DNA from: Myxococcota bacterium
GTDB lineage: Bacteria > Myxococcota_A > UBA796 > CAJQPC01
DNA length: 64,000 bases
Reading direction: 5' to 3'
Assembly: GCA_036229005.1 (NCBI GenBank)
Contig: JAZAMN010000073.1
Coordinates: 32,001 to 96,000 of the forward strand
The position numbers were made by a program, and so were the translations under genes. Each line of letters opens with the position of its first letter. Position 1 is the first letter of the stretch. The notes below the pieces were generated by a model that saw only the letters and a list, made by a program, of their open reading frames with translations, did no database searches and was not told the DNA's origin. This document shows, in pieces, positions 35,976 to 62,523 of this stretch.

Positions 35976-36231
35976 TCGGGCCGGGCATCCTGGGTCGAAC
36001 GCCCGCTCGGGCCGGGCATGCTGGGTCGAACGCCCGCTCGGGCCGGCCATCCTGGGTCGAACGCACGCCCCAGCCGGGCATCCCGGGTCGAACGCCCGCG
36101 CAGACAGGTGCTCAGCGCCAGATCCGCCCTCGATGCCCCAGTTCCCCGGGCGTTCAACCCCAGATCCCCCAGATCCCCGGGCGTTCAACCCCAGATGCCC
36201 AAAATCCGCGGGCGTTCAACCCCGGATGCCC
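35976..36231. repeat. 31-bp-period array: four direct plus three inverted copies
   Basis: Units TCGGGCCGGGCATCCTGGGTCGAACGCCCGC at 35976, 36007, 36038, 36069; inverted core GGGCGTTCAACCCC at 36148, 36179, 36210. Confidence 0.9.
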
Positions 36232-36232
36232 C

Positions 36233-45347: not shown

Positions 45348-45352
45348 GGCGG

Positions 45353-45648
45353 GTCATTGCCCTGTGGGGGAGTGTCCCCCACACCCCCTGTACGGGCTCA
45401 TACGAGCCCGGCGCGACCGAGGGGCCGGTCGCGCGGAGCGGGGCCGACGCGACAGTTCCCCGCGAGAAGCGGGCTCGTCGGGCCCCACTCCCAAATCGCT
45501 GAAAGCGAGTCATCGCTCTGTGGGGGAGTGTCCCCCACACCCCCTGAACGGGCTCCTCGGAGCCCGGCGCGACCGAGGGACCGGTCGCGCGGAGCGGGGC
45601 CGACGCGAGAGTTCTCCGCGAGAAGCGGGCGCGTCGGGCCCCACTCCC
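45353..45648. repeat. Two tandem copies (156-bp period) of a multi-hairpin element
   Basis: Each copy: GTGGGGGAGTGTCCCCCAC, GGGCTC-N4-GAGCCC, CGCGACCG-N6-CGGTCGCG and long GGAGCGGGGCCGACG...CGTCGGGCCCCACTCC stem. Confidence 0.9.
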
Positions 45649-45659
45649 TGAGCGCGCCA

Positions 45660-47120
45660 GGTATCGGGTATCGGGTATCGGGCATCAGGTATCGGGGGGG
45701 CGCGCGGCGACAGGCGACCGGGGACCGGCAACCGCCGATGACGCTTCTCCGGGCTCCTGCGTCGGTGGCAGCCGACTGGGTCGGACGTCTCGGGGCGGCG
45801 CCGGTCCTCCGTCCGGCCGACAGCTCGGACTGAGGACGGCGTTCCGTGGGGGCCCTGGAGACGGCTGGGGCATCAGCTAGCGGGGGGGCGCGCGGCGACA
45901 GGCGACCGGGGACCGGCAACCGCCGATGACGCTTCTCCGGGCTCCAACGTTGGTGGCAGCCGACTGGCTCGGGCGTCTCGGGGAGGGGCCGGTCCTGCGT
46001 CCGGCCCACAGCTCGGTCTGCGGACGGCGTTTCGTGGCGGCCCAGGAGACGGCTGGGGCATCAGGTATCGGGCATCAGGTATCAGGGGCGCGCGGCGACA
46101 GGCGACCGGGGACGGGCAACCGCCGATGACGCTTCTCCGGGCGCCGGCGTCCGTGGCAGCCGACTGGTTCGGGCGCATCGGGGAGGGGCCGGTCCTGCGT
46201 CCGGCCCAAAGTTCGATTTGCGGACGGCGTTTCGTGACGGCCCCGGAGACGGCTGGGGGTATCAGGTATCGGGTATCAGGTATCGGGGGGCGCGCGGCGA
46301 CAGGCGACCGGGGACCGGCAACCGCCGATGACGCTCTGCTGGGCCCCGGCGTTGGTGGCAGCCGACTGGTTCGGGCGCCTCGGGGAGGGGCCGGTCCTGC
46401 GTCCGGCCCACAGCTCGGTCTGTGGACGGCATTGCGTGGCGGCCCAGGAGACGGCTGGGGGTATCAGGTATCAGGCGTCAGGTATCAGGGGGCGATCGGG
46501 GACCGGGGACCGCCGCTGACGCTTCTCCGGGCTCCGGCGTTGGTGGCAGCCGACTGGTTCGGGCGTCTCGGGGAGGGGCCGGTCCTGCGTCCGGCCCACA
46601 GCTTCGCCCCCGGATGAAGCTCCAGGGCCGCCCCCAAGACGGCGCCTCGGCCCACCATCGGCGTCATGACCGATACCTGATACCCGAGACCTGAGCCCCC
46701 GCGCGGCGACAGGCGACCGGGGACCGGCAACCGCCGATGACGCTCTGCTGGGCTCAGGCATTGGTGGCAGCCGACTGGTTCGGGCGTCTCGGGGAGGGGC
46801 CGGTCCTGCGTCCGGCCCACAGCTCGGCTTGCGGACGGCGCTCCGTGGCCGCCCCGGAGACGGCTGGGGGTATCAGGTATCGGGCATCAGGTATCGGGGG
46901 CTCGCGGCGACAGGCGACCGGGGACCGGCAACCGCCGATGACGCTTCTCTGGGCTCCGGCGTTGGTGGCAGCCGACTGGTTCGGGCGCCTCGGGGAGGGG
47001 CCGGTCCTGCGTCCGGCCCACAGCTCGGTTTGCGGACGGCGCTCCGGGTTCGCCCCGCAGGCGGCGTCTCGGCCTGGAGCGGCGTCATGCCCGATACCCG
47101 ATACCTGATCTCCGATACCC
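45660..47120. repeat. Tandem array A: seven ~200-bp REP/BIME-like units
   Basis: Core GGCGACAGGCGACCGGGGAC...GGTGGCAGCCGACT...CCGGCCCAC at about 45706, 45894, 46094, 46296, 46491, 46705, 46906; GGTATC[A/G] heptamer linkers. Confidence 0.95.
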
Positions 47121-47183
47121 GCCCTCCCCAACACGCCCCCACAACTCGGCTGCCACCACGAAAACGACGGGAACTCAAGGTTT

Positions 47184-47232
47184 TCGCCGGTCGCCGGTCG
47201 CCGGTCGCCGGTCGCCGGTCGCCTGTCGCCGG
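47184..47232. repeat. Heptamer microsatellite (TCGCCGG)x7
   Basis: Directly visible; one copy is TCGCCTG. Confidence 0.9.
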
Positions 47233-47250
47233 CCGTCGAACGCCGCCCCC

Positions 47251-49200
47251 CTACTCCAACGCCACCTCAACCTCCGCGCCCCCCCGCCGCACCACCAGCG
47301 TCATCCCCGGCCCCGAGTAGTTGTCCAGCGCCCAGGCCGTCGCTTGCTGCGCCGCGTGGGGGGCCAGCTCCAGCACGTCCATCCCCATCACGACCACGCC
47401 CAGGAGCACGTCTCCCCGCTGCAGCCCGGCGGCCTCGGCCATGGAGCCCGACTCCACAGCGGCGACCTCCAGCTCCCCGCTGGCGTTGGTGGACACCGAG
47501 AAGCCCTGCTCCTCCAGCAACTTGGCCTCGCCGGTCTCCAGCACCACGTCCTGACTCGCCACCCCATCCTGGACGGTCACGCTCACCCGCTCCAGCGGCC
47601 GCTGCGCCAGGAACACCGCGTACTCCCCGTCGTCCAGCCCGGTGATCTCGAACACGCCGTCCTGATCGCTCAGCGCGCCCGCGCCCACCGGGTTCACGGT
47701 CTCCCGCTGCGCGAAGGTGGTCAGCACGGGCTGGTTGTTCTCCGGCTCGCCCGTCAGCCCGGAGTACACGACCCCCGTGATCACGCCCCCGCCGCCGATG
47801 TCGATGTCCCCAAGGTCCACCACCCCCGACTCCACCCACACGTCCGGCTGGGGCGCCCGGGACTCGCCGGTGGTCAGCTCCACCAGGTAGCGGCCGGGCT
47901 CCAGCCCCTCGGCCAGGAAGCTGCCGTCCTTCTCACAGCGCCCCTGCCGCGCGACCACACCACCGCCCGAGAGGTCCGCGGCCAGCTCTCCGAACTCCGG
48001 CACCTTGGCCACCGTCCAGCGACAGCGGGCCGGCGAGCTCCCCCGAAGCACCCGCCCGGTCACCGCGCCCGTCGCGTCGCGGAAGTCCAGCAGCGCGATG
48101 TCCTCGTCTGCGCCGACCAGCACCGATCGACCCCCGGCGCGGACGGCGACTTCTCCTGGTGGGCACTGGCAGCTCGTGGGGTTCCCCGAGCACATCCCCC
48201 CCAGCGGCAGCCTCGGGCGCGTGCAGAACACCGGCGTCACGGTCACGCAGGAGTCCTCCGGGAAGCCCAGGCACTTGACCTCCACCAGGCGGAAGGGCTC
48301 CAGCACAAAGTCCAGCTCCAGGCTCTCCTGGCCGGGGGCAAAGCGCACTGGGTGGCTGGCCTCCTTGAAGCCGGGCTGGCTCGCCTGGGCCGTCAGGGTG
48401 TGCGTCTCCGAGGCCGGCAGGAAGAGGGAGTAGGTGCCGTCTGCGGCGAGATCGACGTGCACACCGAGCCGAAACACCCGGACCCTGCCCTCCGTGATGG
48501 GATCCCCCGCAAGCGAGGTCACCCGACCGTGGACCTCCACGCCCTGCTCGATGACCACGACCTTGTCGGTCTCCTCCAGGGTGTCGATGGCCACGCGGGC
48601 CTGGCTCCAGCCGGGGACCTGGATCTCCAGCGTGCCCTGACCGCAGGCCGTCTCGATGGGGGTCCAGCCCTCCGCCTCCAGAGCGATCTGACGCTCCAGT
48701 GAGGGCTGCACGAAGCCCTCGCTCTGGATGCGCGCGGTCACCGTCCCCGGGCTCAGCGGGTTGCCCTGGGGGTCCTCCACGCGGAGCTGGATGGGACAGC
48801 GCTCCGGCGTGATGAAGTCGTAGGGGCCGGCCTGCGCCTCGACCACGTGGGCGCTGGGATCCGAGCTGCGGGGCCCCAGGTTGATGTTGTCGCCGGGCTG
48901 CGCGAGCAGGGTGTAGCGCCCGTCCGCGTCGCTGCGCACGCTCGCCACGCGGCCCTGACCGGCGCGCCAGAGCCGCACCTCGATGTCGTCGGCCGGGCTC
49001 CCGTCCGGGAAGCGGAGCTGCCCCTGGACCTCCTCGAGATCGCCGGGGTCGGGCTCGCTCAGGCGCACCGAGGGGGTCTGCACCTGGGAAAGCTCGGGGG
49101 CCGCGCGCTCGGGCTTCAGCGAGCCCAGGAGCGCCACGACGCCCACCACGAGCGCCAGGACGAGGCCGCCCAGGAGCCCAACCAGCCAGCGGCGCTTCAC
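47251..49200 (-). CDS. Membrane-anchored protein with carboxypeptidase-regulatory-like repeats and C-terminal PDZ domain
   Basis: GTG 49200 gives MKRRWLVGLL TM; SDADGRY, SDQDGVFEITGL; VESGSMAEAAGLQRGDVL...LVVRRGG (PDZ). Confidence 0.8.
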   Translation of the reverse strand: MKRRWLVGLLGGLVLALVVGVVALLGSLKPERAAPELSQVQTPSVRLSEPDPGDLEEVQGQLRFPDGSPADDIEVRLWRAGQGRVASVRSDADGRYTLLAQPGDNINLGPRSSDPSAHVVEAQAGPYDFITPERCPIQLRVEDPQGNPLSPGTVTARIQSEGFVQPSLERQIALEAEGWTPIETACGQGTLEIQVPGWSQARVAIDTLEETDKVVVIEQGVEVHGRVTSLAGDPITEGRVRVFRLGVHVDLAADGTYSLFLPASETHTLTAQASQPGFKEASHPVRFAPGQESLELDFVLEPFRLVEVKCLGFPEDSCVTVTPVFCTRPRLPLGGMCSGNPTSCQCPPGEVAVRAGGRSVLVGADEDIALLDFRDATGAVTGRVLRGSSPARCRWTVAKVPEFGELAADLSGGGVVARQGRCEKDGSFLAEGLEPGRYLVELTTGESRAPQPDVWVESGVVDLGDIDIGGGGVITGVVYSGLTGEPENNQPVLTTFAQRETVNPVGAGALSDQDGVFEITGLDDGEYAVFLAQRPLERVSVTVQDGVASQDVVLETGEAKLLEEQGFSVSTNASGELEVAAVESGSMAEAAGLQRGDVLLGVVVMGMDVLELAPHAAQQATAWALDNYSGPGMTLVVRRGGAEVEVALE

Positions 49201-49204
49201 GGCC

Positions 49205-49828
49205 TCACTGGGTCTTGTAGGCGGCCTTGCGGACAAAGAGGGGCTGGGGCTGCCCGCCGGAGGCCGTGGCCTTGCCCACGCGGATCTCCAGCTCACCGGT
49301 GGCGTCGGGCACGGGCACCTGCAGCTTCACGAACACGAAGCTGGGGCCGGCGCTGGCCAGGGTCTCGCGGCGCACCTCGTTCCGGGTCGCGCCCACCTTC
49401 ATCCCGTCGGCGTAGACCTCGGTCACCAGCCAGTAGGCCCGGCCGTCGAAGTCGCTGGGCGCGCGGGCGACCAGGATGGGCAGCTCCAGCACGACCACAC
49501 CGGCGGCGGGGGAGCTGAGCTGGGGTGCGTAGCTGTCGGCCAGGGCGTCCTTGCCGATGGTCTCGGGGAGCTTGCCGGCGGCGGTCGCTGCAGAGGCCGG
49601 GGCCGCCTTGGGGGCGGGGGCCTTCACGGAGAAGTTGAAGTCGTCGTCCTCCTCCAGCTCGAAGGTGTCCTCGTCCAGCTCCTCGGCGGCCTTGCGCTTG
49701 GCGGCCTCGTCGCCCTCCTTGAGGAAGTCGAACTCGTCGTCCTCCTCGGCGGCCTCGTCGTCCTGGGCCACGGCGGGGGCGGGATCGGCAGCGAGGAGCA
49801 GGGAGAAGAGCGTGAGCAGCGTGGACAT
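49205..49828 (-). CDS. Secreted hypothetical protein with acidic N-terminal region
   Basis: GGAGG then MSTLLTLFSLLLAADPAPAVAQDDE; track start 50830 is antisense to the permease. Confidence 0.75.
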   Translation of the reverse strand: MSTLLTLFSLLLAADPAPAVAQDDEAAEEDDEFDFLKEGDEAAKRKAAEELDEDTFELEEDDDFNFSVKAPAPKAAPASAATAAGKLPETIGKDALADSYAPQLSSPAAGVVVLELPILVARAPSDFDGRAYWLVTEVYADGMKVGATRNEVRRETLASAGPSFVFVKLQVPVPDATGELEIRVGKATASGGQPQPLFVRKAAYKTQ

Positions 49829-49891
49829 GGGTCCTCCAATCGCGACGCCGCACCATAACCGCAGAGCCGTCGGGAGCGTTAGCTTTGGGGC

Positions 49892-51289
49892 ATGGACAAC
49901 CCCTACCGCCGCGCCTGGGCGCGTCGACGTGCGCACGAGCGGGAGCATGCCGGCCTCGGACCGGGGCTTCGGCGCTGGCTGCCCGTGCTGGGGCTGGGCG
50001 CCGCTGGACCCCTGCTCAAGCCGGTCTTCATGGCCTGGCTCGCCGAGCCCGCGGGCGGGAGCCTGCTGGAGCTCGCCGCGGACAGCACCCGGGTCTCGGA
50101 CGGGGTCGCTGGGTTGGGCCTGCGCCTGGGCATGCTGCTGGCCGGCGTGATGTCCCTGGTGACCTACACCGCGCTGGTGCGCGGCCCCGAGCGCGCCATC
50201 CTGGATCCCTTCCCCGCGCAGCCCCGGGCCCTGGTCCACTACCTCGCGCTGCGCTGCGCCTGGGAGCGCGTGTCCCTCCCCGTGGGGGCCGCCGCCATGC
50301 TGCTCCCCGTCCTGTTCGCCGGGCACCCGCTGGCCTGGGCGCTGGGGAGCCTGGTGGCCGCTGGGGGCTGGCTGGTGGGCCTGCTCGCCGGCTTCACCGT
50401 GCACCTGGGCAGCGTCTGGGCCGCCGAATCGCCCGCGCTGGCCGGGATCCTCAACCTGCTGCGCGGGCAGAACCCCAAGCTCCAGGCCGCGCTGATCTAC
50501 GGACCGGGCGTAGCCCTCGCGGTGGGGACCGCTGCGGTTTTCCTCGCCAGCGAGGGGGTGCGATTGGTGCTCGCGGGCCAGCCTGTCGGGGTGGTGGGCC
50601 TGCTCGCCCCCGTGGGCATCGGCCTCCTCTCCTTCCTCCCCGCTGGGGCCCTGGCGGAGCGCTACCACTTCCGCACAACCCTGCTGCTCGCCGAGGTCGA
50701 CGGCGCCTACGCCCAGGCCGAGCAGGACCCCGAGCAGGCCCGCCGCGTCTACCTGGACTGGATCGTCCGCCTCTTCCCGGCCGGTCCCCACGGCGCCTTC
50801 CACCTGGAGCTCCTCAAGGAGCTGCGTCACGGTTGGCGGGGCCTGCGCTCCTGGATCACCGGGGCCTGGGGCCTGGGGGGCCTCGCCGCGCTCGCTGGGT
50901 GGTCCTCGGATCCCCAGGCGTCCGCGCGCGCCCTGGTCATCGGGGCCGCCTGCCTGCTCGCCATCGCGTCGGTGGGGGTGCGCATCGGCAGCCGCGATCC
51001 CCTCTGGCTGGACCAGGCCCTCCCGCAGCGCCCCCGGATCCGCCTCAGCGCCCGCGCCGTCGCCATCTTCGGCTGGCTGCAGCCCATCGTCCTCTTGCCC
51101 TTCCTCAGCCTCGCCCTGCGGCAGAGCCTCTCCCAGGCCCTGGTCACCGCCGGGAGCTTGGAGTTTGCCGCGCTTCTGCTCGCCGCGATCTCCGCCGGCT
51201 TCTCCTCCTTGCGGGGGAGGGGGTGGGCGCCCTACCTGCTCTCAGGGCTGGCTCTCTGGGCCGTCCTCGTTGGAGGCAGCGTCTTCTGA
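49892..51289 (+). CDS. Multi-TM ABC exporter permease
   Basis: About 10-12 hydrophobic segments; stop overlaps the ATPase start (TGATG). Confidence 0.75.
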   Translation: MDNPYRRAWARRRAHEREHAGLGPGLRRWLPVLGLGAAGPLLKPVFMAWLAEPAGGSLLELAADSTRVSDGVAGLGLRLGMLLAGVMSLVTYTALVRGPERAILDPFPAQPRALVHYLALRCAWERVSLPVGAAAMLLPVLFAGHPLAWALGSLVAAGGWLVGLLAGFTVHLGSVWAAESPALAGILNLLRGQNPKLQAALIYGPGVALAVGTAAVFLASEGVRLVLAGQPVGVVGLLAPVGIGLLSFLPAGALAERYHFRTTLLLAEVDGAYAQAEQDPEQARRVYLDWIVRLFPAGPHGAFHLELLKELRHGWRGLRSWITGAWGLGGLAALAGWSSDPQASARALVIGAACLLAIASVGVRIGSRDPLWLDQALPQRPRIRLSARAVAIFGWLQPIVLLPFLSLALRQSLSQALVTAGSLEFAALLLAAISAGFSSLRGRGWAPYLLSGLALWAVLVGGSVF

Positions 51290-52011
51290 TGTCCGCGATC
51301 ACCGTCTCGGGACTGCGCAAGGAATACGGCCGCGTCGTGGCCGTGCACGAGGTCTCCTTCTCCGTGGAGCCCGGCGAGCTCGTCGCCCTCATCGGCCACA
51401 ACGGCGCCGGCAAGTCCACGACCATCAAGATGCTCACCGGGCAGCTCCTGCCCACCGCTGGGAGCGTGCACCTGGCCGGCGTGGACGTGGTCAAGCAGCC
51501 CGGGGAGGCGAGGGAGAAGCTGGGCTATGTCCCCGAGGATCCCCACCTCTACGACTACCTGTCCTGCCGCGAGTTCCTTGAGCTGGTCGCGTCCCTGCGA
51601 GGACAGGCTGAGATCGACCACGCCCTGGAGCTGGCTGGCCTGGGCGAGGACGCCGATCGCCTGATCCGCGAGTACTCCCAGGGCATGCGGCGGCGTACCG
51701 CTCTGGCCGCTGCGGTGGTCGGGAAGCCCCCGGTGCTGGTTCTGGACGAGGCCCTCAATGGCCTGGACCCGCCCTCGGCCTCCCGCGTCAAGGCAGGCCT
51801 GCGCGGTCTCTGTGATGGGGGCTGCGCGGTCCTCTTGTCCACCCACGTGCTGGACACCGTGGAGCGTCTGGCCGATCGCGTGATCATGCTGGCCCACGGC
51901 CGGGTGGTCGCCGACGAGCGCGTCTCGGAGATCGGCTCCGAGGGCCTGGAGCGCCTGTTTCTGGAGCGAATCGGAGCCAGTCATCAGGCTGGACCGGGCG
52001 CGGGCGCTTGA
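51289..52011 (+). CDS. ABC transporter ATP-binding protein
   Basis: GHNGAGKST, YSQGMRRR, LVLDEALNGLDP, STH. Confidence 0.93.
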   Translation: MSAITVSGLRKEYGRVVAVHEVSFSVEPGELVALIGHNGAGKSTTIKMLTGQLLPTAGSVHLAGVDVVKQPGEAREKLGYVPEDPHLYDYLSCREFLELVASLRGQAEIDHALELAGLGEDADRLIREYSQGMRRRTALAAAVVGKPPVLVLDEALNGLDPPSASRVKAGLRGLCDGGCAVLLSTHVLDTVERLADRVIMLAHGRVVADERVSEIGSEGLERLFLERIGASHQAGPGAGA

Positions 52012-52087
52012 GCGCCACCTGATCAATCTCATTGCGCCGCGGCCGTGTTTTCGTTAACCACCGGCGTCGCTTTTGGAGCACCCCCTC

Positions 52088-52393
52088 ATGGCCAAGAAGA
52101 GCAAGATCGCTCGCGATGAGCAGCGCCGCGCTGCCGTCGAGAAGTTCGCTGACCAGCGCGCCGCCCTTGTGGCCGTGTGCAAGGATCCCAACGCGAGCCT
52201 CGACGAGAAGCAGGAGGCCTACAAGGCCCTCGCCAAGCTGCCTCGCGATTCCAGCAAGACCCGCACCCGCAACCGCTGCAAGACCACCGGTCGTCCCCGC
52301 GCCTACCTGCGTGATTTCGGCCTGTGCCGTATCGCGTTCCGCGAGATGGCCCACCGGGGAGAGCTCCCCGGCGTCAAGAAGGCGAGCTGGTAA
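52088..52393 (+). CDS. rpsN: 30S ribosomal protein S14, long Zn-independent type
   Basis: MAKKSKIAR...LPRDSS.TR.RNRC..TGRPR...[11 protein letters not shown]; 101 aa; incomplete Zn ribbon. Confidence 0.97.
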
Positions 52394-52403
52394 GGAGCAG
52401 AAA

Positions 52404-52565
52404 ATGAAGGTCGTCAACTCCCTCAAGAGCCTCAAGCTCGCAGCCGGTGACACGCAGATCGTGCGCCGCCGCGGCAAGGTCTTCCTGATCTGCAAGAGCA
52501 ACCCCAAGCTCAAGGCTCGCCAAGGTGGAACCAGCAAGAAGGCCAAGCGCCGCGCCAAGCGCTGA
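52404..52565 (+). CDS. rpmJ: 50S ribosomal protein L36, type B (YkgO-like), with basic C-terminal extension
   Basis: [21 protein letters not shown]...[23 protein letters not shown] plus [12 protein letters not shown]. Confidence 0.93.
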
Positions 52566-52587
52566 GCACCACCTTAGGTTCAACAGC

Positions 52588-52620
52588 AAGAGGCTCGGCC
52601 AGATGGTCGGGCCTTTTCTG
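52588..52620 (+). terminator. Rho-independent terminator
   Basis: AGGCTCGGCCA-GA-TGGTCGGGCCT stem followed by TTTCTGCTTTCT. Confidence 0.8.
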
Positions 52621-52649
52621 CTTTCTGGCACCCCTGTCCCTGCAGCCCC

Positions 52650-54977
52650 GTGAGCGAGCCCATGAGCACCCCCACCGCGCCTGAGAAGCCTGAGATCCCC
52701 AGCAACTTCCTCTCGGACATCATCCAGGCCGACCAGGCCAGCGGGCGCTACGACGGCCAGGTCGTCACGCGCTTCCCGCCGGAGCCCAACGGCTACCTGC
52801 ACATCGGGCACGCCAAGGCGATCTGCACGGACTTCGCTCTGGCCAAGGCCTTCGGGGGCCGCTGCCACCTGCGCTTCGACGACACCAACCCCGAGAAGGA
52901 GTCGGACGAGTACGTGCGCTCCATCAAGGAGGACGTGCGCTGGCTGGGCTTTGACTGGGGGGAGCACCTCTACTTCGCCTCGGACTTCTTCGAGAAGATG
53001 TACGAGCTCGCCGTGGACCTCATCGAGCGCGGCCTGGCCTACGTCGACAGCCAGACGCTGGAGGAGATGCGCGCCACCCGCGGCACCGTGACCGAGCCGG
53101 GCACCCCCAGCCCCTACCGGGACCGCTCCGTGGCCGAGAACCTGGACCTCTTCGCCCGGATGCGCGCCGGTGAGTTCCCGGACGGCGCCCACGTGCTGCG
53201 CGCCAAGGGGGACATGGCCGCGGCCAACATGAAGCTGCGGGACCCGCTGCTCTACCGCATCCGGAACGTGGCCCACCACCGCCAGGGCGAGAGCTGGTGC
53301 ATCTACCCGATGTACGACTACGCCCACCCCCTGGAGGACGCCCTCGAGGGCGTGACCCACAGCTTCTGCACCCTCGAGTTCGAGAACAACCGGGACATCT
53401 ACGACTGGGTCATCAACAACGTCGACCGTGCCCAGCTCAAGACCCAGCCCCGGCAGTACGAGTTCGCGCGCCTGAACATCGGCTACACCGTCATGTCCAA
53501 GCGCCTGCTGCTGCAGCTCGTCGAGCAGGGCCACGTCAGCGGCTGGGATGATCCCCGCATGCCAACCATCGCCGGGATGCGCCGCCGCGGAATCCGCCCG
53601 GAGGCCGTGCGCCACTTTGTGGACCGCGTGGGCCTGGCCAAGGCCAACTCCCAGGTGGACGCCGAGCTGCTGGACGTCACCATCCGCGAGGACCTGAACC
53701 ACGAGGCCCGCCGGGTCATGTGCGTGACCGACCCGCTGCCCGTGGAGATCACCAACCTGCCCCCCGGCCAGGTCGAGTGGCTGGAGGCCAGCTACTGGCC
53801 CCACGACGTGCCCAAGACCGGTAGCCGCCAGGTGCCCTTCACCCGCAACCTGGTCATCGAGCGCGAGGACTTCGCCGAGGTGCCCCCCCGCAAGTGGCGG
53901 CGCATGACCCCCGGCGTCGAGATCCGCCTGCGCTACGGCTTCTACGTGACCTGCACGGGCGTGGAGAAGGACGCCCAGGGCGAGATCACCAAGGTCCTGT
54001 GCACCTACGATCCCGACAGCCGCGGAGGCACCACCGCCGACGGCCGCAAGGTCAAGGGCACCATCCACTGGGTCAGCGCGGACCAGGGCGTGCCCTGCGA
54101 GCTGCGGCTCTACGACCGCCTGCTCTCCGTGGAGAACGCCAGCTCCCAGAGCTTCCTGGAGGACCTCAACCCCCAGAGCCTGCGCGTGACCCGGGGCCTC
54201 ATCGAGCCCCAGGTCGCCAAGGAGCTGGCCGCCGCCCCAAGCGCGCTGCGCTGGCAGTTCGAACGCCAGGGCTACTTCTGGGCCGATCCCGTCGACAGCG
54301 CCCCGGACGCGCTGGTGTTCAACCGCATCGTCCCCCTCAAGAGCTCCTGGGGCAAGGAGGCCCCCAAGGCCGCGCCCGCGCCCAAGCCCAAGAAGCAGAC
54401 CAAGCCCAAGGCCCCCAAGGCCGGAAAGCGCCCCGAGCTGAGCCCCGAGCAGGAGGCCGAGGTCGCTCGACTCACGCAGATCGGGGCCCCCCGCGACGCC
54501 GCTGTGGTGCTCCAGGGTGAGCCGGCGCTCCTGGGCTGGTTCGAGGACAGCGTGGCGGCGGGTGGGGATCCCAAGACGGTGTCCTCGCTGGTGGTCAATG
54601 AGCTGCGACGGGCTGCAGGGGACCGGGATCTCGGAGCGTTGGGCTTCACCGGCGCGGAGCTCGCTGAGCTCGCCTCCCTCCTGGACGCGGGCACGATCAG
54701 CTCCAAGGCCGGGAAGAAGGTCCTGGGTGTGCTGGTCAAGGAGGGCGGCAGCCCCAAGGCCATCGTGCAGGCGCTGGGCCTGGCCCAGATCTCCGACCCC
54801 GCCGAGATCCGCCCCCTGATCCAGGGCGTCCTGGACGCGAACGCCGCCAAGGTCGACGCCTACAGGGGCGGCCAGAAGGGGCTGATGGGCTTCTTCATGG
54901 GCCAGAGCCTGCAGGCCAGCGGGGGCCGCGCCGACCCCCAGGTGGTCCGCAAGCTGCTGGTCGAGCTGCTGGGCTGA
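52650..54977 (+). CDS. glnS: Glutamine--tRNA ligase with C-terminal GatB/YqeY domain
   Basis: TRFPPEPNGYLHIGHAK, VMSKR, GWDDPRMPT, KVKGTIHWVS, QFERQGYF; tail GLAQISD...GFFMGQ...GRADP. Confidence 0.96.
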   Translation: MSEPMSTPTAPEKPEIPSNFLSDIIQADQASGRYDGQVVTRFPPEPNGYLHIGHAKAICTDFALAKAFGGRCHLRFDDTNPEKESDEYVRSIKEDVRWLGFDWGEHLYFASDFFEKMYELAVDLIERGLAYVDSQTLEEMRATRGTVTEPGTPSPYRDRSVAENLDLFARMRAGEFPDGAHVLRAKGDMAAANMKLRDPLLYRIRNVAHHRQGESWCIYPMYDYAHPLEDALEGVTHSFCTLEFENNRDIYDWVINNVDRAQLKTQPRQYEFARLNIGYTVMSKRLLLQLVEQGHVSGWDDPRMPTIAGMRRRGIRPEAVRHFVDRVGLAKANSQVDAELLDVTIREDLNHEARRVMCVTDPLPVEITNLPPGQVEWLEASYWPHDVPKTGSRQVPFTRNLVIEREDFAEVPPRKWRRMTPGVEIRLRYGFYVTCTGVEKDAQGEITKVLCTYDPDSRGGTTADGRKVKGTIHWVSADQGVPCELRLYDRLLSVENASSQSFLEDLNPQSLRVTRGLIEPQVAKELAAAPSALRWQFERQGYFWADPVDSAPDALVFNRIVPLKSSWGKEAPKAAPAPKPKKQTKPKAPKAGKRPELSPEQEAEVARLTQIGAPRDAAVVLQGEPALLGWFEDSVAAGGDPKTVSSLVVNELRRAAGDRDLGALGFTGAELAELASLLDAGTISSKAGKKVLGVLVKEGGSPKAIVQALGLAQISDPAEIRPLIQGVLDANAAKVDAYRGGQKGLMGFFMGQSLQASGGRADPQVVRKLLVELLG

Positions 54978-55029
54978 GCCCCGCGTCCGAGTTAGGTCCC
55001 GACCCCGCCACTCCTGGGAGAGTCAACCC

Positions 55030-55437
55030 ATGTCCGAGCCCACCTTCCACGCCTACGTGCGTCGCGACGAGCTGCCCCCCGTGTCCGAGATCGTGCGGGC
55101 CATGTCCTCGCGCGGCTGGCGCGTGTCCATCAGCGGCGTCGAGACCCTGGCCGAGGCCAGCGACGGCGCCCTGCCTGTGCAGGTCGATGATCAGGACACC
55201 GCGATCACCTTCAAGCGCCTCGAGGACGGCAAGGGCGAGTTCGACGCCCTGCGCAGCGAGCTGCCCCAGCACTTCGACCAGGAGACCTACAAGGAGGTCC
55301 TGCGTCAGATGGAGCTGCGCCTGAGCTTCACCGGCGACGCCGTGTGGGCCCGGGAGATGGCCCGCTCCGTGGCGCTGCTGTCCGCGGGGGCCTTCGAGAA
55401 CCCCCAGGACAACAAGCTGCTCTTCTACGGGCGCTGA
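55030..55437 (+). CDS. Hypothetical protein
   Basis: GGGAGAG RBS; GC3-rich codon usage; fills gap after glnS. Confidence 0.7.
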   Translation: MSEPTFHAYVRRDELPPVSEIVRAMSSRGWRVSISGVETLAEASDGALPVQVDDQDTAITFKRLEDGKGEFDALRSELPQHFDQETYKEVLRQMELRLSFTGDAVWAREMARSVALLSAGAFENPQDNKLLFYGR

Positions 55438-55509
55438 TTCCGCAGCGCCTGCCTTACTGAGCCCGCCTACTGGGCCTGACTGCTGGGCCCGACTGGTGGG
55501 CCCGCCCGC

Positions 55510-56166
55510 CTACACGGCCATCAGGGCCGACTGCAGGCGGGTGGTGTACGCCGCCAGCGCCATCGACGCGCCAGGCGGCATGCTCAGGAAGGACAGGGCG
55601 ACCTGATAGGGGAACTCCGAGTCCTCGGGGTCGCCGCTGCATCGGACCAGGCGCGCGCTGCAGCGCCAGGTCTGGGGGTCTCCGGGGATGCCCAGCTCCA
55701 CTAGGAGCAGGGAGCGCGCGGGCATCGGCTGGGGGCTGTGGATGCTCAGGCCCTCGACCGAGAAGTCCACGTAGGGGTCGGCGACCACCCAGTTGCCCTC
55801 GCAGTCCTTGCCCGCCAGGTAGTCCACGATCTCGGTGGGCGTGGCCTGGCGGATGCGCACCTGCAGCCCGCCGTTCATGCGGGGGAAGAGCCGGCGCTCG
55901 GAGACCTCCTTGGTCTCGGTGTCCAGGCGCAGGTAGTCGCGGCCCACCTGGACCACGGTGCCCACCATGCGGACCTGGTTGCCGCTCCCGGTGGAGAGCA
56001 CGAGGGTGTCGTTCAGCGCGATGCCGGCGGAGCCCTCGTGGATCCGCAGGGTCCAGCGGCCGTCGTCATCCTGGGTCGCGACGCCCTGCCGGAGCATCTG
56101 CCGGATGGCACCGGGCGCGATGATCTGCACCTCCAGGTGCTCGGTGAAGCTGCTGTCTTCCATCAT
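55510..56166 (-). CDS. PilZ-domain protein
   Basis: ERRLFPR and DFSVEGL match the PilZ RxxxR and DxSxxG motifs. Confidence 0.8.
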   Translation of the reverse strand: MMEDSSFTEHLEVQIIAPGAIRQMLRQGVATQDDDGRWTLRIHEGSAGIALNDTLVLSTGSGNQVRMVGTVVQVGRDYLRLDTETKEVSERRLFPRMNGGLQVRIRQATPTEIVDYLAGKDCEGNWVVADPYVDFSVEGLSIHSPQPMPARSLLLVELGIPGDPQTWRCSARLVRCSGDPEDSEFPYQVALSFLSMPPGASMALAAYTTRLQSALMAV

Positions 56167-56289
56167 GGGTCAAAGCCTCCGATTGCCCCCCTCAGCGGAT
56201 TCCGGGGCCCGGTGCTGAAGAGGCAACCCCGCGCCCGGGCGTGGTAGCAAGACCTCAAGTACGCCTCTCACCGGGCGATTCGGGGAGCC

Positions 56290-59200
56290 ATGTTTTCGAT
56301 CACCGCCTCGATCCTCCTGTCGGCCCTGCTGGCGTGCCGCAGCGCGCAGTCTCAACCCACGGCTCTGGACGACAGCCCAGCGGAGACAGGGGAGGAGGGG
56401 CTGGGGCCCTGCGAAGACCCGGGCTCACCCTCTCTGGACGGGGTGCTGACCATCGATCGTTGCTGGACCGTGGTCGCCAGCGAGGACACCCGACCGCTGG
56501 CCGAGGCCTGGATGTCCGGAGCGCTGCTCATGGGCTGCGAAGACGAGCTGCCGGAGATGCTGCTGTTGGCCTCGCCGGACCCCGACAGGCCCTTCATCCG
56601 GCTCGGACTGGACGAGAGCCTGGACGGTCAGGCCTACCGCATCCGACACGACGACAGCTCCCTCTCCATCACCGGCGGGAGCCTGCAGGGCCTGCGCTTT
56701 GGCCTCAGTGACTGGGTCGCCAGCCTGGACCGGGTGGACCTGGAGGGGGGCGCGCAGTGGCGGCCGGATCCCACGGACACGCTGAGCACGGGGCCCACGA
56801 CCTGCTCGGACTACGACGCCACGTGCGCGGACACCGAGTCCTGCTGGACGGAGACCGGGTGGACGCCCGTCGAGCGCGTGCTCTGGCGCACCCAGGAGGT
56901 CGACAACGCGCCCCAGGTGCAGGACCGCATCGCGTTCGCGAGCTTCAAGGGCACCCAGAACAGCCACTTCCTGCCCAACCTGGTCTACTCAGAGCTGGGC
57001 ACCTGCGAGAGCCCCCAGGACACCAGCGCCTTCTGGGAGGGCCTGCTGGGCTGCGACCGCCAATCCGAGGGCACCTGCCTGGAGGTCCAGCGTCGCCTGG
57101 ACGCCGTGGTCGCCGGGCGCTTCACCCAGGCCCTGGACGAGGGCCACCCCATGAGCGTGGGGGACTCCGTTGAGCGCTACACCGGCTGCGATGGGGCCCT
57201 GCTCTACCAGGACTTCGTGGACTACCTGGCCCTGCGCGGGGTCGAGCTCGTGCCCACCGTCTACGGCCTGGAGACCCGCATCCCGGGGACCCCCGTGGCC
57301 GGCCCGCGCATCTCGGACGAGGACCCCGCCGAGCTCTGGGGCGTCGCCGGGGACGCCACCCTGAGCCAGGGCCTGGGCCTCGCCACCACGCTCCAGGCCT
57401 GCGCGCTGGACGCCGGCACCTTCCTCTCGCCCGGGGACTGCTCGCTGCTGGACGAAGACGGCCACGTCCAGGGCCCGCTGTGGGTGAGCGAGCGCTACGA
57501 CGTGGACACCCTGGCGCCCCCCGAATCCGTGGGGGCCTGCGGTCCGCTGGAGCTCTGCGCCACCAAGTCGGCCTGCTGGGAGGCGGGCCCCGGGCACGAT
57601 GGGCAGGCGCTCTGGCCTGCGGCGGAGTGCAACAACCCCGTGCTGCGCTGGATCCTGCCCCAGGATGGCCGCTGGTACGCCCTGCACTTCGAGGGCGGCA
57701 TGGTCGAGAACCGCGACCTGCAGATCAAGCTGATCACCAAGGATATCAAGGGCTTCACCAACGTCATGGACGTGGAGCTGCTCTCCACCACCGACGCCGA
57801 GGGCGAATACCTCAACCCCCTGGACGCCGTCGGGGATGCCCGCGCCGTGCGCTACTCCGTGGTGTTCCGGGCCCCCGCCGCCCACGCGCGCCTCCAGGAC
57901 GCCTACCTGCAGATCATGGGGGCTCCCGGCGCCCAGGCCTGGGTCGACAACCTCCAGCTCGCCCAGGTCGAAGGGCAGCTCCGGCACGTCGACGCCGACT
58001 CCGTGCTGGGACCGGAGTGCCTGGTCGTGCACGACGCCGCAGAGGCTCCGCTCGCGGTGGACCCCTTCTTTGAGGGCCAGACCGGGGAGGTGCTCGGCGG
58101 CGCAGCCTTCCAGGCCGACTGCCTGTCCCCCGGGGAGCAGGTCCAGGTCGCCTACCGGAGCTGGACCCACTTTGGCCTGTGGCCGGGCATCGCCACGCGG
58201 CAGAAGACCTACACCTACAGCCCCGGCGTGTTCAACCCGCGCTACTGGGACGACGCCACCAGCCCCACCCGCCAGGTGCAGGCCATGGGCGCGCAGGACC
58301 CCGCGTGGATGCTCATCTCCGATCTGGGGGGGGAGGCGAGGGGAGTGGACCGCCTGGACCCCTTGGTCGACCTCCACACATCGCAGGTCCTCAGCGCCTT
58401 TGTGTGTCAGGTGGAGAGCGAGGTCTGTGAGGGCTGCGGCGACTGCAGCTCCAGTCTGCTGCCTCTCTCCGACCCCGAGTTCGCCCCCTGCGCCTGCGCG
58501 GACTGGGAGACCGACACCGGCCCCCGCCTGCTGATCGCCGGGGACATGTACAGCGCCTGGCACAACGGCGGCGACACCGACACCGTGCCCGTCCGCGAGG
58601 GCTATCAGGTCCCCCACGGCGGCGACTGGGAGGGCTCCTGGGAGGCCCGGCACGACCTGCCCTCCGACGCCGTCTTCCTGACCTGGTGGCACTACGACAG
58701 CCGCCGCGCCGGCAAGGCCGTCGGGGGGCAGGAGACCGCCCTGGGCTTCGTGCTGGACTACGCTGAGACCGGCCACGCCACCGTCGGCGCCTCCGCCTGG
58801 GACCCCGACAACCAGCGCGTCTGGGCCGCATTGGCCGCTGGCACCGACCGCACCCACGACCTCTCCGTCGCCGGCGTCGCGCAGTTCGGCTGGGGCAGCG
58901 ACGCCCAGGGCCCGCGGGTCATGGCCAACGCCGGGCGCTGGTTCTGGAACCCCGGCTGGTCCCACGTGGCCGGCTGGCTCCAGTCCACCGACGCGGGCAT
59001 GCCCGGGGGCGACGAGTCCAGCCAGTGGAGCGCCAGCGGCATGCACCTGGAGCCCTCCACCGGCGAAATGATCTGGCCCCAGGTCGGCGACTGGCAGGTC
59101 ATCGACGGCGACAGCGCGAGCTGGGTCGGCCCCATGCGCCAGGTCCGCTGGGAGGGGCAGGAGGGCGGCGAGCGGGTGCTCGTGCGCTTCTACGCCACCC

Positions 59201-59550
59201 TCCCGGCCGGGTGCAGTGTACAGACCACCTTTGCCCACGACGGCCCCAGCGAGGACCTGCTGTCCGTGACCATCACCCCCGACGCCCATGACCACCGCGT
59301 CTGGTCCGCCTCGGTGGACCTCCCCACCGGGGCCAGCTCGGTGCGCCCCGAGCTGAGCTTCACCGGCTGCGCGGGCGGGGTGCTCGATGCCGTGACCCTC
59401 TACGCCAGCCTCCCCGTCGTCGACTTCCCCTACGCCTGGGAGGGCGAGGGCTTCGAGGACTGGCCGGGCGAAGAGACGGTCGACGCGCGCTTCAAGATCT
59501 GCGGGGACGTGGAGACCTGGGACTGCGTGAATGGGGGGACGTGGGAGTAG
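56290..59550 (+). CDS. Large lipoprotein with GH20/hexosaminidase-like framework and inserted beta domains
   Basis: LLAC lipobox; QAYRI...ITGGSLQGLRFGL (GH20 domain 2-like); FVDYLALRGVELVP; LLIAGDM; LPSDAVFLTWWHY. Confidence 0.6.
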   Translation: MFSITASILLSALLACRSAQSQPTALDDSPAETGEEGLGPCEDPGSPSLDGVLTIDRCWTVVASEDTRPLAEAWMSGALLMGCEDELPEMLLLASPDPDRPFIRLGLDESLDGQAYRIRHDDSSLSITGGSLQGLRFGLSDWVASLDRVDLEGGAQWRPDPTDTLSTGPTTCSDYDATCADTESCWTETGWTPVERVLWRTQEVDNAPQVQDRIAFASFKGTQNSHFLPNLVYSELGTCESPQDTSAFWEGLLGCDRQSEGTCLEVQRRLDAVVAGRFTQALDEGHPMSVGDSVERYTGCDGALLYQDFVDYLALRGVELVPTVYGLETRIPGTPVAGPRISDEDPAELWGVAGDATLSQGLGLATTLQACALDAGTFLSPGDCSLLDEDGHVQGPLWVSERYDVDTLAPPESVGACGPLELCATKSACWEAGPGHDGQALWPAAECNNPVLRWILPQDGRWYALHFEGGMVENRDLQIKLITKDIKGFTNVMDVELLSTTDAEGEYLNPLDAVGDARAVRYSVVFRAPAAHARLQDAYLQIMGAPGAQAWVDNLQLAQVEGQLRHVDADSVLGPECLVVHDAAEAPLAVDPFFEGQTGEVLGGAAFQADCLSPGEQVQVAYRSWTHFGLWPGIATRQKTYTYSPGVFNPRYWDDATSPTRQVQAMGAQDPAWMLISDLGGEARGVDRLDPLVDLHTSQVLSAFVCQVESEVCEGCGDCSSSLLPLSDPEFAPCACADWETDTGPRLLIAGDMYSAWHNGGDTDTVPVREGYQVPHGGDWEGSWEARHDLPSDAVFLTWWHYDSRRAGKAVGGQETALGFVLDYAETGHATVGASAWDPDNQRVWAALAAGTDRTHDLSVAGVAQFGWGSDAQGPRVMANAGRWFWNPGWSHVAGWLQSTDAGMPGGDESSQWSASGMHLEPSTGEMIWPQVGDWQVIDGDSASWVGPMRQVRWEGQEGGERVLVRFYATLPAGCSVQTTFAHDGPSEDLLSVTITPDAHDHRVWSASVDLPTGASSVRPELSFTGCAGGVLDAVTLYASLPVVDFPYAWEGEGFEDWPGEETVDARFKICGDVETWDCVNGGTWE

Positions 59551-59551
59551 C

Positions 59552-61731
59552 GGTCGGGTATCGGGGGGCAGGTATCGGGTATCGGGTATCGGGTCTCAGT
59601 CATCACGCCGCTCCCCTCCGAGGCGCGCTCTCCCGGCCGAACTCGGCACTCCATCCGGGGACCGGCGCTCCAGTGGCCCGCACGAAGTGCCGGGCCCTCC
59701 CCGAGACGTCTCCCCAAGTCGGCTGCCACCGGCGCCTCGAGCCTGCCTCAACGTCATCGACGGTCGCTGGTCCCCGGTCGCCGCCAGGGGGGCTCAGGCG
59801 TCGGGGCTCAGGTATCAGGTCTCAGGTCTCGGTCATCACGCCTCTCCTCTCCGAAGCGTGCTCTCCCGGCCGAACCCGGCACTCCATTCCGGGACCGGTC
59901 CAGACCGGCGCTCCCGTGGCCCGCACGCAGTGCCGGGCCCTCCCCGAGACGCCTCCCCAAGTCGGCTGCCACCGGCGCCTCGACCTGGCTGGGCGTCATC
60001 GGCGGTCCCCGGTCCCCGGTTCCCGGTCGCCGCCAGGGGGGCTCAGGCGTCGGGGCTCAGGTATCAGGCGTCGGGTATCGGTCATCACGCGGCTCCCCTC
60101 CGAAGCGTGCTCTCCCGGCCGAACTCGGAACCCCATCCGGCAACCGGCCCCTCCGTGGCCCGCACGCAGTGCCGGGCCCTCCCCGAGACGCCTCCCCAAG
60201 TCGGCTGCCACCGGCGCCTCGAGCCTGCCCCAACGCCATCGACGGTCCCCGGTCCCCGGTCCCCGGTCGCCGCCAGGGGGGCTCAGGCGTCGGGGCTCAG
60301 GTATCGGGTATCGGTCATCACGCCGCTCCCCTCCGAGGCGCGCTCTCCCGGCCGAACCCGGAACCCCACCCGGCAACCGGCCCCTCCGTGGCCCGCACGC
60401 AGTGCCGGGCCCTCTCCGAGGCGTTCCTCCAAGTCGGCTGCCACCGGCGCCTCGAGCCTGCCCCAACGCTATCGGCGGTCCCCGGTCCCCGGTCCCCGGT
60501 CGCCGCCAGGGGGCTCAGGCGTCGGGGGCCAGGTATCAGGCGTCGGGTATCGGTCATCACGCCGCTCCTCTCCGAAGCGCGCTCTCCCGGCCGAACCCGG
60601 AACCCCATCCGGCAACCGGCGCTCCCGTGGCCCGTACGAAGTGCCGGGCCCTCCCCGAGGCGCCTCCCCAAGTCGGCTGCCAGCGGCGCCTCGAGCCTGC
60701 CCCAGCGTCATCGGCGGTCCCCGGTCCCCGGTCCCCGGTCGCCGCCAGGGGGCTCAGGCGTCGGGGGGGCAGGTGTCAGGCGTCGGATATCGGCCATCAC
60801 GCCGCTCCCCTCCGAGGCGTGCTCTCCCGGCCGAACCCGGAACGTCATCCGGGGACCGGCGCTCCCGTGGCCCGCACGCAGTGCCGTGCCCTCCCCGAGA
60901 CGCCTCCCCAAGTCGGCTGACAGCGGCGCCTCGAGCCTGCCCCAACGTCATCGGCGGTCCCCGGTCCCCGGTCCCCGGTCGCCGGCAGGGGGCTCAGCGT
61001 CGGGGGTCAGGTATCAGGCGTCGGGTATCGGTCATCACGCCGCTCCCCTCCGAGGCGCGCTCTCCCGGCCGAACCCGGAACGTCATCCGGGGACCGGCGC
61101 TCCCGTGGCCCGCACGAAGTGCCGGGCCCTCTCCGAGACGCCTCCCCAGGTCGGCTGCCACCGGCGCCTCGACCTGGCTGGGCGTCATCGGCGGTCCCCG
61201 GTCCCCGGTCGCCGCGAGGGGGGCTCAGGTATCAGGCGTCGGGTATCGGTCATCACGCCGCTCCTCTCCGAGGCGTCGTCTCCAGGGCGAGCCCGGAACG
61301 TCATCCGGCAACCGGCGCTCCCGTGGCCCGCACGCAGTGCCGGGCCCTCCCCGAGACGCCTCACCAAGTCGGCTGCCACGGGCGCCTCGGCCCGGCAGGG
61401 CGTCATCGGCGGTCCCCGGTCCCTGGTCCCCGGTCGCCGCCAGGGGGCTCAGGCGTCGGGGCTCAGGTATCAGGCGTCGGGTGTCGGTCATCACGCCGCT
61501 CCCCTCCGAGGCGTGCTCTCCCGGCCGAACCCGGAACCCCAGCCTGCAACCGGCCCCCGTGGCCCGCACGAAGTGCCGGGCCCTCCCCGAGACGCCTCCC
61601 CAAGTCGGCTGCCACCGGCGCCTCGAGCCTGCCCCAACGCCATCGGCGGTCCCCGGTCCCCGGTCCCCGGTCGCCGCCACCCACCGACCCCCGACCCCCG
61701 ATACCCGATACCCGCCCCCCGATACCCGACC
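59552..61731. repeat. Tandem array B: nine ~238-bp units bounded by 35-bp terminal inverted repeats
   Basis: TCATCACGC-type anchors at 59600, 59833, 60082, 60315, 60554, 60794, 61032, 61250, 61488; TIRs 59552-59586 and 61697-61731. Confidence 0.95.
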
Positions 61732-61737
61732 TCCGCC

Positions 61738-62523
61738 TCACTCCGTCGGCACCTCATCCTCAACAACCACCGCAACAACCGGCACCCCAAACACCCGGCT
61801 CCACCCCCGCGAGCCGTCGTCCAGGCGCAGCCAGAAGCGGTCGCCGACCAGGGTGCAACCGGGCAGACGCGCGCCCCAGATCACGTCGTCGGCGTGCTCC
61901 AGCAGTGCCTCGCCGGCGAGTACACAGCTCAAGGAAGGCTCGGTGGGGTGCAGGATCCGGAGTCGTGGGCCCAGAGCGGCGACGCGCTCCAGATCCACCT
62001 CTCCCACCTGCTGCCCCTTGCTGGGGTCGATGCGGCTCCAGCTCCGCTCCCAGGTCGCGGCGTCCAGGATCCGGCGCTCGGCGGCCAGGGGAGCGTCGTC
62101 CAGGGGGAGGCGGTCGCAGAGCTCCGAGAGCAGGGTGGCGGCGTCGGAGACCAGGCGCTCGCGCATCAGGCGGTGGCCGGGCTGCTGATCCTCGAGGCGG
62201 CGGGAGAGGGACTTGCTGGCCTGGAGCACGGCGACGTCCACCGCCTGGTCCACCAGGGCGCGGGCTTCGCCCAGATCCGTCGGGATCTCGGCCCCTTCGA
62301 GGTGATCTCGGGCCAGAGAGAGCAGGGTGGTCTGGACGTGGAGCTGCCAGGCCCGCAGGCTGAGGATCTGACGGCGGCTGCCGGGCACCGCGCGCAGGCG
62401 CTGACCACGGCCCTGGAGCTGCAGGTGCTCGTCGGCGTGATCTTGCAGGACCTGGGCGATGCGGGCCCGGAGCTGGCCGCAGAAGCGCGGACCAGGAGCG
62501 GGGCCGGGAGGGACGACAGCCAT
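61738..62523 (-). CDS. Hypothetical protein
   Basis: Only plausible ORF between the array and the ligase; ATG start; no motif recognised. Confidence 0.5.
   Translation of the reverse strand: MAVVPPGPAPGPRFCGQLRARIAQVLQDHADEHLQLQGRGQRLRAVPGSRRQILSLRAWQLHVQTTLLSLARDHLEGAEIPTDLGEARALVDQAVDVAVLQASKSLSRRLEDQQPGHRLMRERLVSDAATLLSELCDRLPLDDAPLAAERRILDAATWERSWSRIDPSKGQQVGEVDLERVAALGPRLRILHPTEPSLSCVLAGEALLEHADDVIWGARLPGCTLVGDRFWLRLDDGSRGWSRVFGVPVVAVVVEDEVPTE

Follow-up and report, generated by a model that had tools for sequence, protein, structure and literature searches.

Heptamer-armed repeat arrays of a Myxococcota genome and their probable kinship with a four-helix-bundle gene cassette

Results

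Two arrays of one heptamer-armed family

We analyzed two tandem repeat arrays, A (45659..47115, plus strand, seven units) and B (59556..61737, plus strand, nine units), in a 64,000-nucleotide stretch of DNA (the window) that is part of contig C73 of the Myxococcota genome G000 (6.4 Mb, 70% GC, 74 contigs, 94% complete). On balance, we judge A and B to be tandem-amplified members of a lineage-specific, non-coding family, likely gene-less relatives of a cassette in which runs of a 7-base repeat (heptamer) bracket a gene for a four-helix-bundle protein of family PF05635 (23S_rRNA_IVP). The elements have heptamer arms, and the same heptamer brackets a gene that matches PF05635; copies are dispersed over 47 loci and sit behind stop codons; the core contains a covarying bulged hairpin, and the arms slip in heptamer units. 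An earlier note on this DNA, which had taken the arrays for a candidate system of repetitive extragenic palindromes (REPs) and bacterial interspersed mosaic elements (BIMEs), was largely right in observation and good in structural intuition but wrong in family assignment, and it missed the main architecture, in which arms of heptamer repeats terminate both the arrays and every single unit.

Each array opens with an inward-facing run of the heptamer RGGTATC (H1) and closes with an inverted H1 run. Array A is bounded by a left outer arm at 45659..45693 (plus strand) and an inverted right outer arm at 47093..47115 (minus strand). Its units, spaced 188-221 bp apart, read in order H1 run, run of a second heptamer (H2, GG[CG]GACC), GATGACG box, GGCAGCCGAC box, GGGGAGGG box, and hairpin. 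An inverted, degenerate half-unit on the minus strand (47130..47230), closing in an H2 run, (GG[CG]GACC)n, extends the array to 47230. Array B has units in which an H1 arm and an H2 arm face each other across a core of ~200 bp, with a spacing of 218-243 bp, and the right outer arm is an inverted, partly decayed H1 run (61684..61737, minus strand). Conserved boxes within the core are separated by spacers of variable sequence and fixed length; when we looked for an internal phasing of 31 or 35 bp in the core, no lag rose above z 2.8. As the earlier note recognized, the reverse complement of B aligns with A, and the two arrays are one family, with a core identity of 0.76 between them. Because identity within the arrays (0.917 in A and 0.911 in B) exceeds this between-array value, we conclude that A and B each grew locally.

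The family is dispersed in one genome

A profile search of G000 returned 102 matches at 47 loci, 78 of them near-full cores, in line with the expectation of further genomic copies; these 78 cores include the within-array copies, which are related to each other. We compared G000 with 60 relatives (the other G-numbers), a panel of 61 genomes in which related members are not independent of one another. The unit was not found in the 60 relatives, five of which gave matches of 25-42 bp only, near E 5e-4. Scanning metagenomes with a long pattern gave zero matches, and a short pattern gave 116 loci in which similarity reached barely past the seed.

H1 and H2 dominate the period-7 doublets of G000, and most other loci of the family are, like the arrays, built on heptamer runs; an inverted arm lies within 150-275 nt in 43 of the 78 cores. 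Multi-run clusters number 58: contig ends account for 25, and gaps between convergent, tandem, and divergent genes for 16, 13, and 4, respectively. The convergent setting is enriched (16 of 33 internal loci vs 135 of 845 long intergenic regions, p 1e-5). Where H1 comes after a stop codon, it is on the sense strand 49 times and on the other 11. Many family copies are chimeric or truncated, and 25 of the 148 contig ends of G000 break within these repeats.

The heptamer ends of the G000 elements are fuzzy. Target-site duplication was not above that of mismatched pairs at the 19 ends tested, and the lone 21-bp match in this test proved to be a tandem copy. At the two gene ends tested, three congeners carried no repeat; neighboring genes differ, so no exact empty site was recovered.

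The arms are shared with a four-helix-bundle gene

G000 contains four matches to PF05635. Inward-facing H1 runs enclose the one on contig C18, in the same arrangement as at the two arrays. Inward 7-base runs at both ends occur at many other loci of the family too. The C18 gene matches the pentameric protein XCC0516 (PDB 2GSC, E 1e-22) and is truncated, without the last helix that is present in ten aligned relatives.

The association of this gene family with heptamers extends over many phyla. At 58 homologous loci, a period-7 run stood on at least one side in 41 and on both sides in 24 (controls, 0 of 46), while periods 4-6 and 8-10 reached at most 3 loci per side. An inverted match of at least 10 bp joined the two flanks at 30 of the 58 loci vs 1 control. 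Each locus with a run has its own heptamer, and when aligned, read upstream on the sense strand of the gene, the heptamers have in common a G with 98% conservation, in front of which A stands in most cases. The form AGGTATC falls at the 97.5th percentile of this cross-phylum profile, its reverse complement at the 40th.

We surveyed dispersed heptamers with three arm patterns, H1 and two taken from arms of relatives, in all 61 genomes. The H1 pattern occurred 135 times in G000, 15 times in G034, where it flanks two PF05635 copies, and 0 times in the other 59; the H2 pattern was confined to G000 save for one match in G015. A further arm pattern, taken from relatives, was dispersed in G007, G018, G021, G034, G040, and G054, and another in G022 and G054. 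A PF05635 gene is flanked by the genome's own heptamer also in G034, G022, and G007, and in the cases examined the heptamer dispersed through a genome agreed with the arms of that genome's four-helix gene. All eight genomes with at least 4 heptamer hits carry PF05635, including four of four that were not used for pattern design; PF05635 has a base rate of 28 of 61, and where it is lacking (33 genomes), hits never exceeded 2. No description of a link between heptamers and four-helix genes was found in the literature searched, coverage of which left out most subscription papers.

Two side observations concern these cassettes. A second PF05635 subfamily (L002, L003, L004, L094-L109) is flanked in several relatives by hexamer or octamer runs in place of heptamers, together with a conserved upstream hairpin, and the repeat period may track the protein subfamily. 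In G007, one four-helix cassette (L085) has a direct repeat of ~16 bp outside its arms, resembling a target duplication or an attachment site.

A conserved hairpin within the core

Every unit has one hairpin, on one strand, in which GTGG leads into a stem with a single bulged base. The B type (59916..59940, plus strand) consists of a 6-bp stem, one bulged base, a 3-bp stem, and a C-GNA-G loop; other copies start at 59673, 60155, 60388, 60627, 60867, 61105, 61323, and 61559. In the A type (45985..46009, minus strand; other copies start at 45821, 46209, 46411, 46599, 46820, and 47021 on the minus strand), the outer stem is intact and the inner stem is broken in 7 of 7 units; with the three pairs under the loop mostly lost, the predicted structure has a 5-nt loop, so the C-GNA-G triloop ascribed earlier to both arrays does not hold for A. 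The two B loops that had been reported are present, C-GCA-G five times and C-GAA-G four times, without strict alternation. Across the 78 genome-wide cores, a three-pair inner stem closes C-GNA-G in most copies; the loop occurs in 56 (GCA 40, GAA 10, GGA 5, GTA 1), and GTGG is kept in 64.

We tested covariation over the 78 cores with mutual information corrected by average product (APC) and tree parsimony, a test of our own in place of R-scape. Hairpin pairs were the two highest of 5778 APC-corrected pairs, and parsimony placed 10 compensatory events on the nine hairpin pairs vs 0-2 in six slid controls. The G-C to C-G swap next to GTGG to which the earlier note had drawn attention is real (pair 4:21; CG 7 and GC 4 among 11 distinct rows) and is a single event within the window. 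For the two G's of GTGG, a complementary C is present in 68 of 76 and in 70 of 78 copies, respectively, and predicted folds pair them, but their columns never covary. Triloops of the GNA type are unusually stable in DNA, not in RNA. We conclude that the hairpin is conserved and structurally constrained and that, to judge by its loop, it likely forms in single-stranded DNA, much as had been supposed.

The hairpin keeps company with the heptamers. All 33 exact structural matches lie inside heptamer-armed elements, at most 200 bp from a run, as do 56 of 58 profile matches at the same distance from a heptamer run, the remaining two being in an array of the same family; as background, such a run lies within 200 bp for 2.6% of intergenic midpoints. 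The second, facing motif, GGTGGCAGCCGAC, which had been described as another GTGG-led motif, is highly conserved, but it shares only five letters with the GTGG motif of the hairpin and folds no better than shuffles (z 0.15 to 0.96, 4 folds), so the unit is not a REP doublet.

A position directly behind stop codons with a bias to the sense strand could also mark host-maintained 3' RNA elements, serving as RNase III substrates, stabilizers, or terminators in the way of the ORF-bearing intervening sequences (IVSs) of 23S rRNA; RNase III cuts the Coxiella IVS, in which this protein family and heptamer repeats are also present, according to the available text of PMC4990558. We regard this explanation as quite improbable. 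The three congeners are repeat-free at the same gene ends, the whole B unit is not unusually well folded with DNA energies, and an Rfam scan of the window gave zero matches; moreover, the stability of GNA triloops is particular to DNA.

Relation to REP elements and RAYT-like genes

The earlier note had placed the arrays among REP/BIME elements and supposed a trans-acting nuclease of the HUH (His-hydrophobe-His) type, as with the REP-associated tyrosine transposases (RAYTs). PF01797 has no match in G000. The RAYT model NF047646 gave five weak matches, below the cut-off, and one more ORF, degenerate and not flanked by repeats, came from a profile built on 35 RAYT-like proteins. Of the five genes, four adjoin other tandem arrays, and the one on C27 has a short, different repeat. 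Neither H1 nor the core lay beside any of the 6 RAYT-like genes of G000. At 20 RAYT-like loci of five genomes, we found no H1-type arms and no copy of the G034 hairpin described below, although a period-7 run, short and unrelated, was present at two loci. A second RAYT-like family had a true heptamer run at 1 of 30 loci and arrays of 50-52 bp at about half. A REP/BIME element with an HUH enzyme in trans is thus not supported, since no RAYT-like gene is flanked by the family and the unit is not a doublet, though the hairpin looks REP-like; the gene that shares the element ends is the four-helix-bundle gene. We rejected as cognate enzyme a RAYT-like pseudogene of G034 with heptamer elements upstream, one of 30 loci examined in its family: its 76%-identical paralogue and most of its relatives are flanked by 51-bp arrays instead, and we read the arrangement as a nested insertion. 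Used as a query, this pseudogene found no match in G000.

An orphan form of the REP idea is harder to dismiss, and we hold it to be doubtful: the GTGG hairpin would be the substrate of a lost, unassembled, or borrowed RAYT-type HUH nuclease and the arms mere passengers. The GTGG tag (64 of 78), bulged stem, covariation, GNA loop, and extragenic placement between convergent genes all fit, and the sections available of PMC8266576 give bulged stems as typical of group 2 REPs and needed for TnpA-REP activity. The genome holds six RAYT-like genes, the G034 pseudogene does have heptamer elements upstream, and, with 25 of 148 contig ends falling within these repeats, a cognate RAYT gene could be missing from the assembly. 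What tells against an orphan REP is that the family flanks 0 of 6 RAYT-like genes in G000, that H1-type arms occur at 0 of 20 loci in five genomes and a true heptamer run at 1 of 30 in the second family, that the hairpin is absent outside heptamer elements, and that the facing motif does not repeat it. In addition, the G's of GTGG can pair (68/76 and 70/78), while REP tags are described as unpaired in the part of PMC3733652 consulted.

Several side observations belong to the RAYT-like genes. In the sixth RAYT-like ORF of G000 (C57, L341:875-1665), no HUH motif is clearly recognizable, but the palindromic motif that lies upstream of the other five is retained. A divergent HUH/Y1-like family with a helix-turn-helix, missed by Pfam, occurs in 27 of the 61 genomes (L311-L340), and tandem arrays of 50-52-bp period stand beside about half of 30 loci examined, paralleling the 31-bp families at the G000 RAYT-like genes. 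Inverted blocks of 31-bp units lie at window positions 35976-36233 and at 21 loci genome-wide, and this family also flanks a RAYT-like gene on C24. Such 31-bp arrays are often in or beside heptamer elements (C45:597, C64:23469, C8:126427, C16:77408), which suggests shared insertion sites at gene 3' ends.

A counterpart element in G034

In G034, which belongs to another family, we found a gene-less, 189-bp element resembling a MITE (a miniature transposable element with inverted repeats), with inward heptamer arms and 13-bp terminal inverted repeats (L272-L284; ~50 copies). A target duplication of 5-7 bp accompanied 13 of 14 copies examined, using the same script as for G000. A hairpin at one end occurs 51 times, and among 50 listed copies of it, 44 have a GNA loop. 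Because the element has no sequence similarity to the G000 core, the combination of heptamer arms and a GNA-triloop hairpin arose at least twice. No autonomous partner of the element was found in 16 stretches around single ends.

Strain variation and coding potential of the arrays

The sequencing runs with G000-type DNA are marine metagenomes. In run X2, contigs enter arrays A and B from both sides. Relative to the window, run X3 differs in length by 14, 14, and 7 bases in three heptamer arms; its strain has two additional heptamers in the half-unit at 47130..47230, and the right outer arm of B is shorter by one heptamer. We conclude that the arrays are real and that the heptamer arms slip in units of seven between strains. 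As no contig from four sequencing runs spans array A or B, the unit counts are those of the assembly, without independent confirmation. One RNA run gave four short partial matches, 0 inside the arrays, too few to inform on expression.

Variation of this kind raises the explanation that the elements are now protein-free, spread by recombination and slippage at heptamer runs, with covariation produced by template-switch correction of an imperfect palindrome, a process established at quasi-palindromes. Fuzzy ends, the lack of target duplication, the many chimeric and truncated copies, the truncated partner gene, and the broken inner stem tolerated in 7 of 7 A units are all compatible with it. We nevertheless think it unlikely: palindrome correction should erase the bulge, a G-N-A loop with a free middle base is left unexplained in two unrelated element families, conserved boxes with fixed-length variable spacers suggest recognition, and slippage alone does not account for a strand-biased spread over 47 loci of a single lineage.

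Three open frames (885, 459, and 832 codons) overlap array B, and translated repeat proteins had been named as what would overturn the REP/BIME-like interpretation. Codon scores were negative in 12 of 12 array frames (-0.43 to -0.73) vs +0.47 and +0.59 for two real genes, and we therefore conclude that the long frames in B are not genes. GC content at third codon positions is ~0.75 in the arrays vs 0.96, unit lengths are mostly not divisible by three, and the three long B frames had no match in a Pfam scan of 12 genes from 43680 to 63932 and five array ORFs. That the arrays encode repeat proteins is hardly credible.

Gene neighborhood

Both arrays occupy gaps between convergent gene ends. Converging on array A is an ABC-F ATPase gene (43680..45347, plus strand; two ABC_tran domains and ABC_tran_Xtn), which we take to be EttA-like; on the other side, the gene for a carboxypeptidase-regulatory-like and PDZ protein (47251..49200, minus strand) has its stop 21 bp from the array. 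Array B is preceded immediately by the stop of a gene of 1086 aa without a Pfam match (56290..59550, plus strand) and followed by a gene of 261 aa, likewise without a Pfam match (61738..62523, minus strand), which is conserved in three congeners with repeat-free 3' ends. Gene order relative to the three congeners breaks at both arrays (window 45347 and 61738). A separate, palindrome-rich repeat of 156 bp has two copies at window 45342-45648, between the ABC-F gene and array A; it occurs at 6 loci in the genome, two others being ~1 kb or less from heptamer elements.

Discussion

A possible mechanism

If the arrays are gene-less relatives of the heptamer/four-helix cassette, an oligomeric, Avd-like four-helix protein would bind the heptamer arms on the strand with the conserved (A)G; Avd and PF05635 are, we presume, related. 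Copying of the element would include a single-stranded stage, at which rapid folding of the triloop hairpin would label the DNA as substrate of a nuclease acting in trans, and copies would persist at gene 3' ends through doing little harm there. Arrays would have grown by local duplication between internal heptamer runs, with two junction types, from a truncated tail to the next H1 in A and from an inverted H1 to the next H2 in B. Dispersal may have stopped, since the partner gene in this assembly is without its last helix. No catalytic partner was found in G000, where no HUH gene stands in context, and a search for reverse transcriptase was negative in G007 and G022 as well as in G000.

That last result in G000 is one of several that weigh against kinship with the cassette or against the mechanism. 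The weakest point is that the core has no profile match to the C18 cassette, so that the H1 heptamer is the only link between them; the interior of the arrays was not found to derive from a gene cassette, and a PF05635 gene flanked by H2 was looked for in G000 and not found. H2 itself fits the heptamer profile moderately (about the 70th percentile, on either strand, in one form). Of the homologous loci, 17 of 58 are without a period-7 run at our threshold, many relatives carry PF05635 subfamilies flanked by hexamers or octamers, and the correlations between protein residues and heptamer bases were computed without kinship correction. Related genomes are also not independent of one another in the co-occurrence of heptamers and PF05635. 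The missing target duplication in G000 adds to these points, as does the duplication present in G034, which suggests a transposase-type motor different from that of G000. With DNA energies, the whole B unit folds no better than shuffles (z -0.57). To our knowledge, PF05635 proteins have no known function, and the family has no known enzyme activity. Finally, Avd binds DNA and RNA without detectable specificity in the portion of PMC5758913 available.

Going beyond the probable kinship of A and B with the cassette, we tentatively raise the possibility that elements with heptamer arms form a class of their own among extragenic replicators with a partner gene, parallel to REP doublets (REPINs) and their RAYTs, in which an Avd-like four-helix-bundle oligomer reads a genome-specific heptamer and, together with a C-GNA-G hairpin of the element in single-stranded DNA, directs the copying of gene-less elements throughout the chromosome. 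If true, this class would explain the genome-specific heptamer repeats of many bacteria and give PF05635 a function. The locus ties heptamer repeats to PF05635 by naming candidates for the protein, the binding strand, and the structural signal. The practical lesson is modest: the arrays are not a new RAYT system, and the repeats break assemblies of this species.

Comparison with known systems

The arrays resemble REP, REPIN, and BIME elements with their RAYTs, as far as PMC8266576 and PMC3733652 were available, in being non-autonomous extragenic repeats with a GTGG-led bulged hairpin and clustered arrays, and in having a single repeat-flanked partner gene as organizing principle. They differ in that the family stands beside no RAYT gene, the hairpin does not spread on its own and forms no doublets, and the gene sharing the element ends is, as far as is known, non-catalytic.

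MITEs are likewise short and gene-less with inverted ends, and the G034 counterpart comes close with its 13-bp terminal inverted repeats and 5-7-bp duplications; in contrast, the heptamer ends of G000 elements are fuzzy, target duplication is absent, and a matching transposase was not found.

In diversity-generating retroelements (DGRs), targets require a DNA hairpin with a constrained loop behind the stop codon, according to the available part of PMC3240598. DGRs with Avd thus share with the present elements a GC-rich DNA hairpin with a constrained G..A loop behind the stop codon and a pentameric helical-bundle accessory protein (PMC3240598 and PMC5758913, in the portions available). The DGR loop is however a 4-nt GRNA (PMC3240598), and G000 is without a reverse transcriptase match; in our analysis the resemblance appears to be a parallel only.

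Heptamer repeats are over-represented in many bacterial genomes, with origins given as not known in the accessible text of PMC4692102 and PMC4679880, which describe GGGAATC in Xanthomonas and Nostoc (PMC4692102) and TAACTGA in Beggiatoaceae (PMC4679880). Those of Xanthomonas are similar to the present ones in forming short intergenic runs, often as convergent pairs close behind a stop codon (PMC4692102, same text). Here, unlike in the known repeats, the arms enclose a conserved core of 200 bp that is itself tandemly repeated. A term match on the main texts of both papers returned no mention of the four-helix-bundle gene.

The protein partner itself is best known from the IVSs of 23S rRNA, which carry the gene of a PF05635/TIGR02436 protein (XCC0516, PDB 2GSC); the C18 gene, between its inverted heptamer runs, belongs to the same family. 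Terminal inverted repeats are present in the Coxiella IVS, with heptamer repeats before its ORF, and the available text of PMC4990558 draws no link from these heptamers to dispersed repeats. The arrays lie between protein-coding genes, in a window without an Rfam match, and differ from rRNA IVSs in being ORF-less, dispersed at gene 3' ends, and tandem, with a covarying GNA-loop hairpin. Among the systems compared, the arrays are likely best placed with the heptamer-armed four-helix-bundle cassettes, as a non-autonomous extragenic repeat variant, and the covarying internal hairpin is what this locus adds to them.

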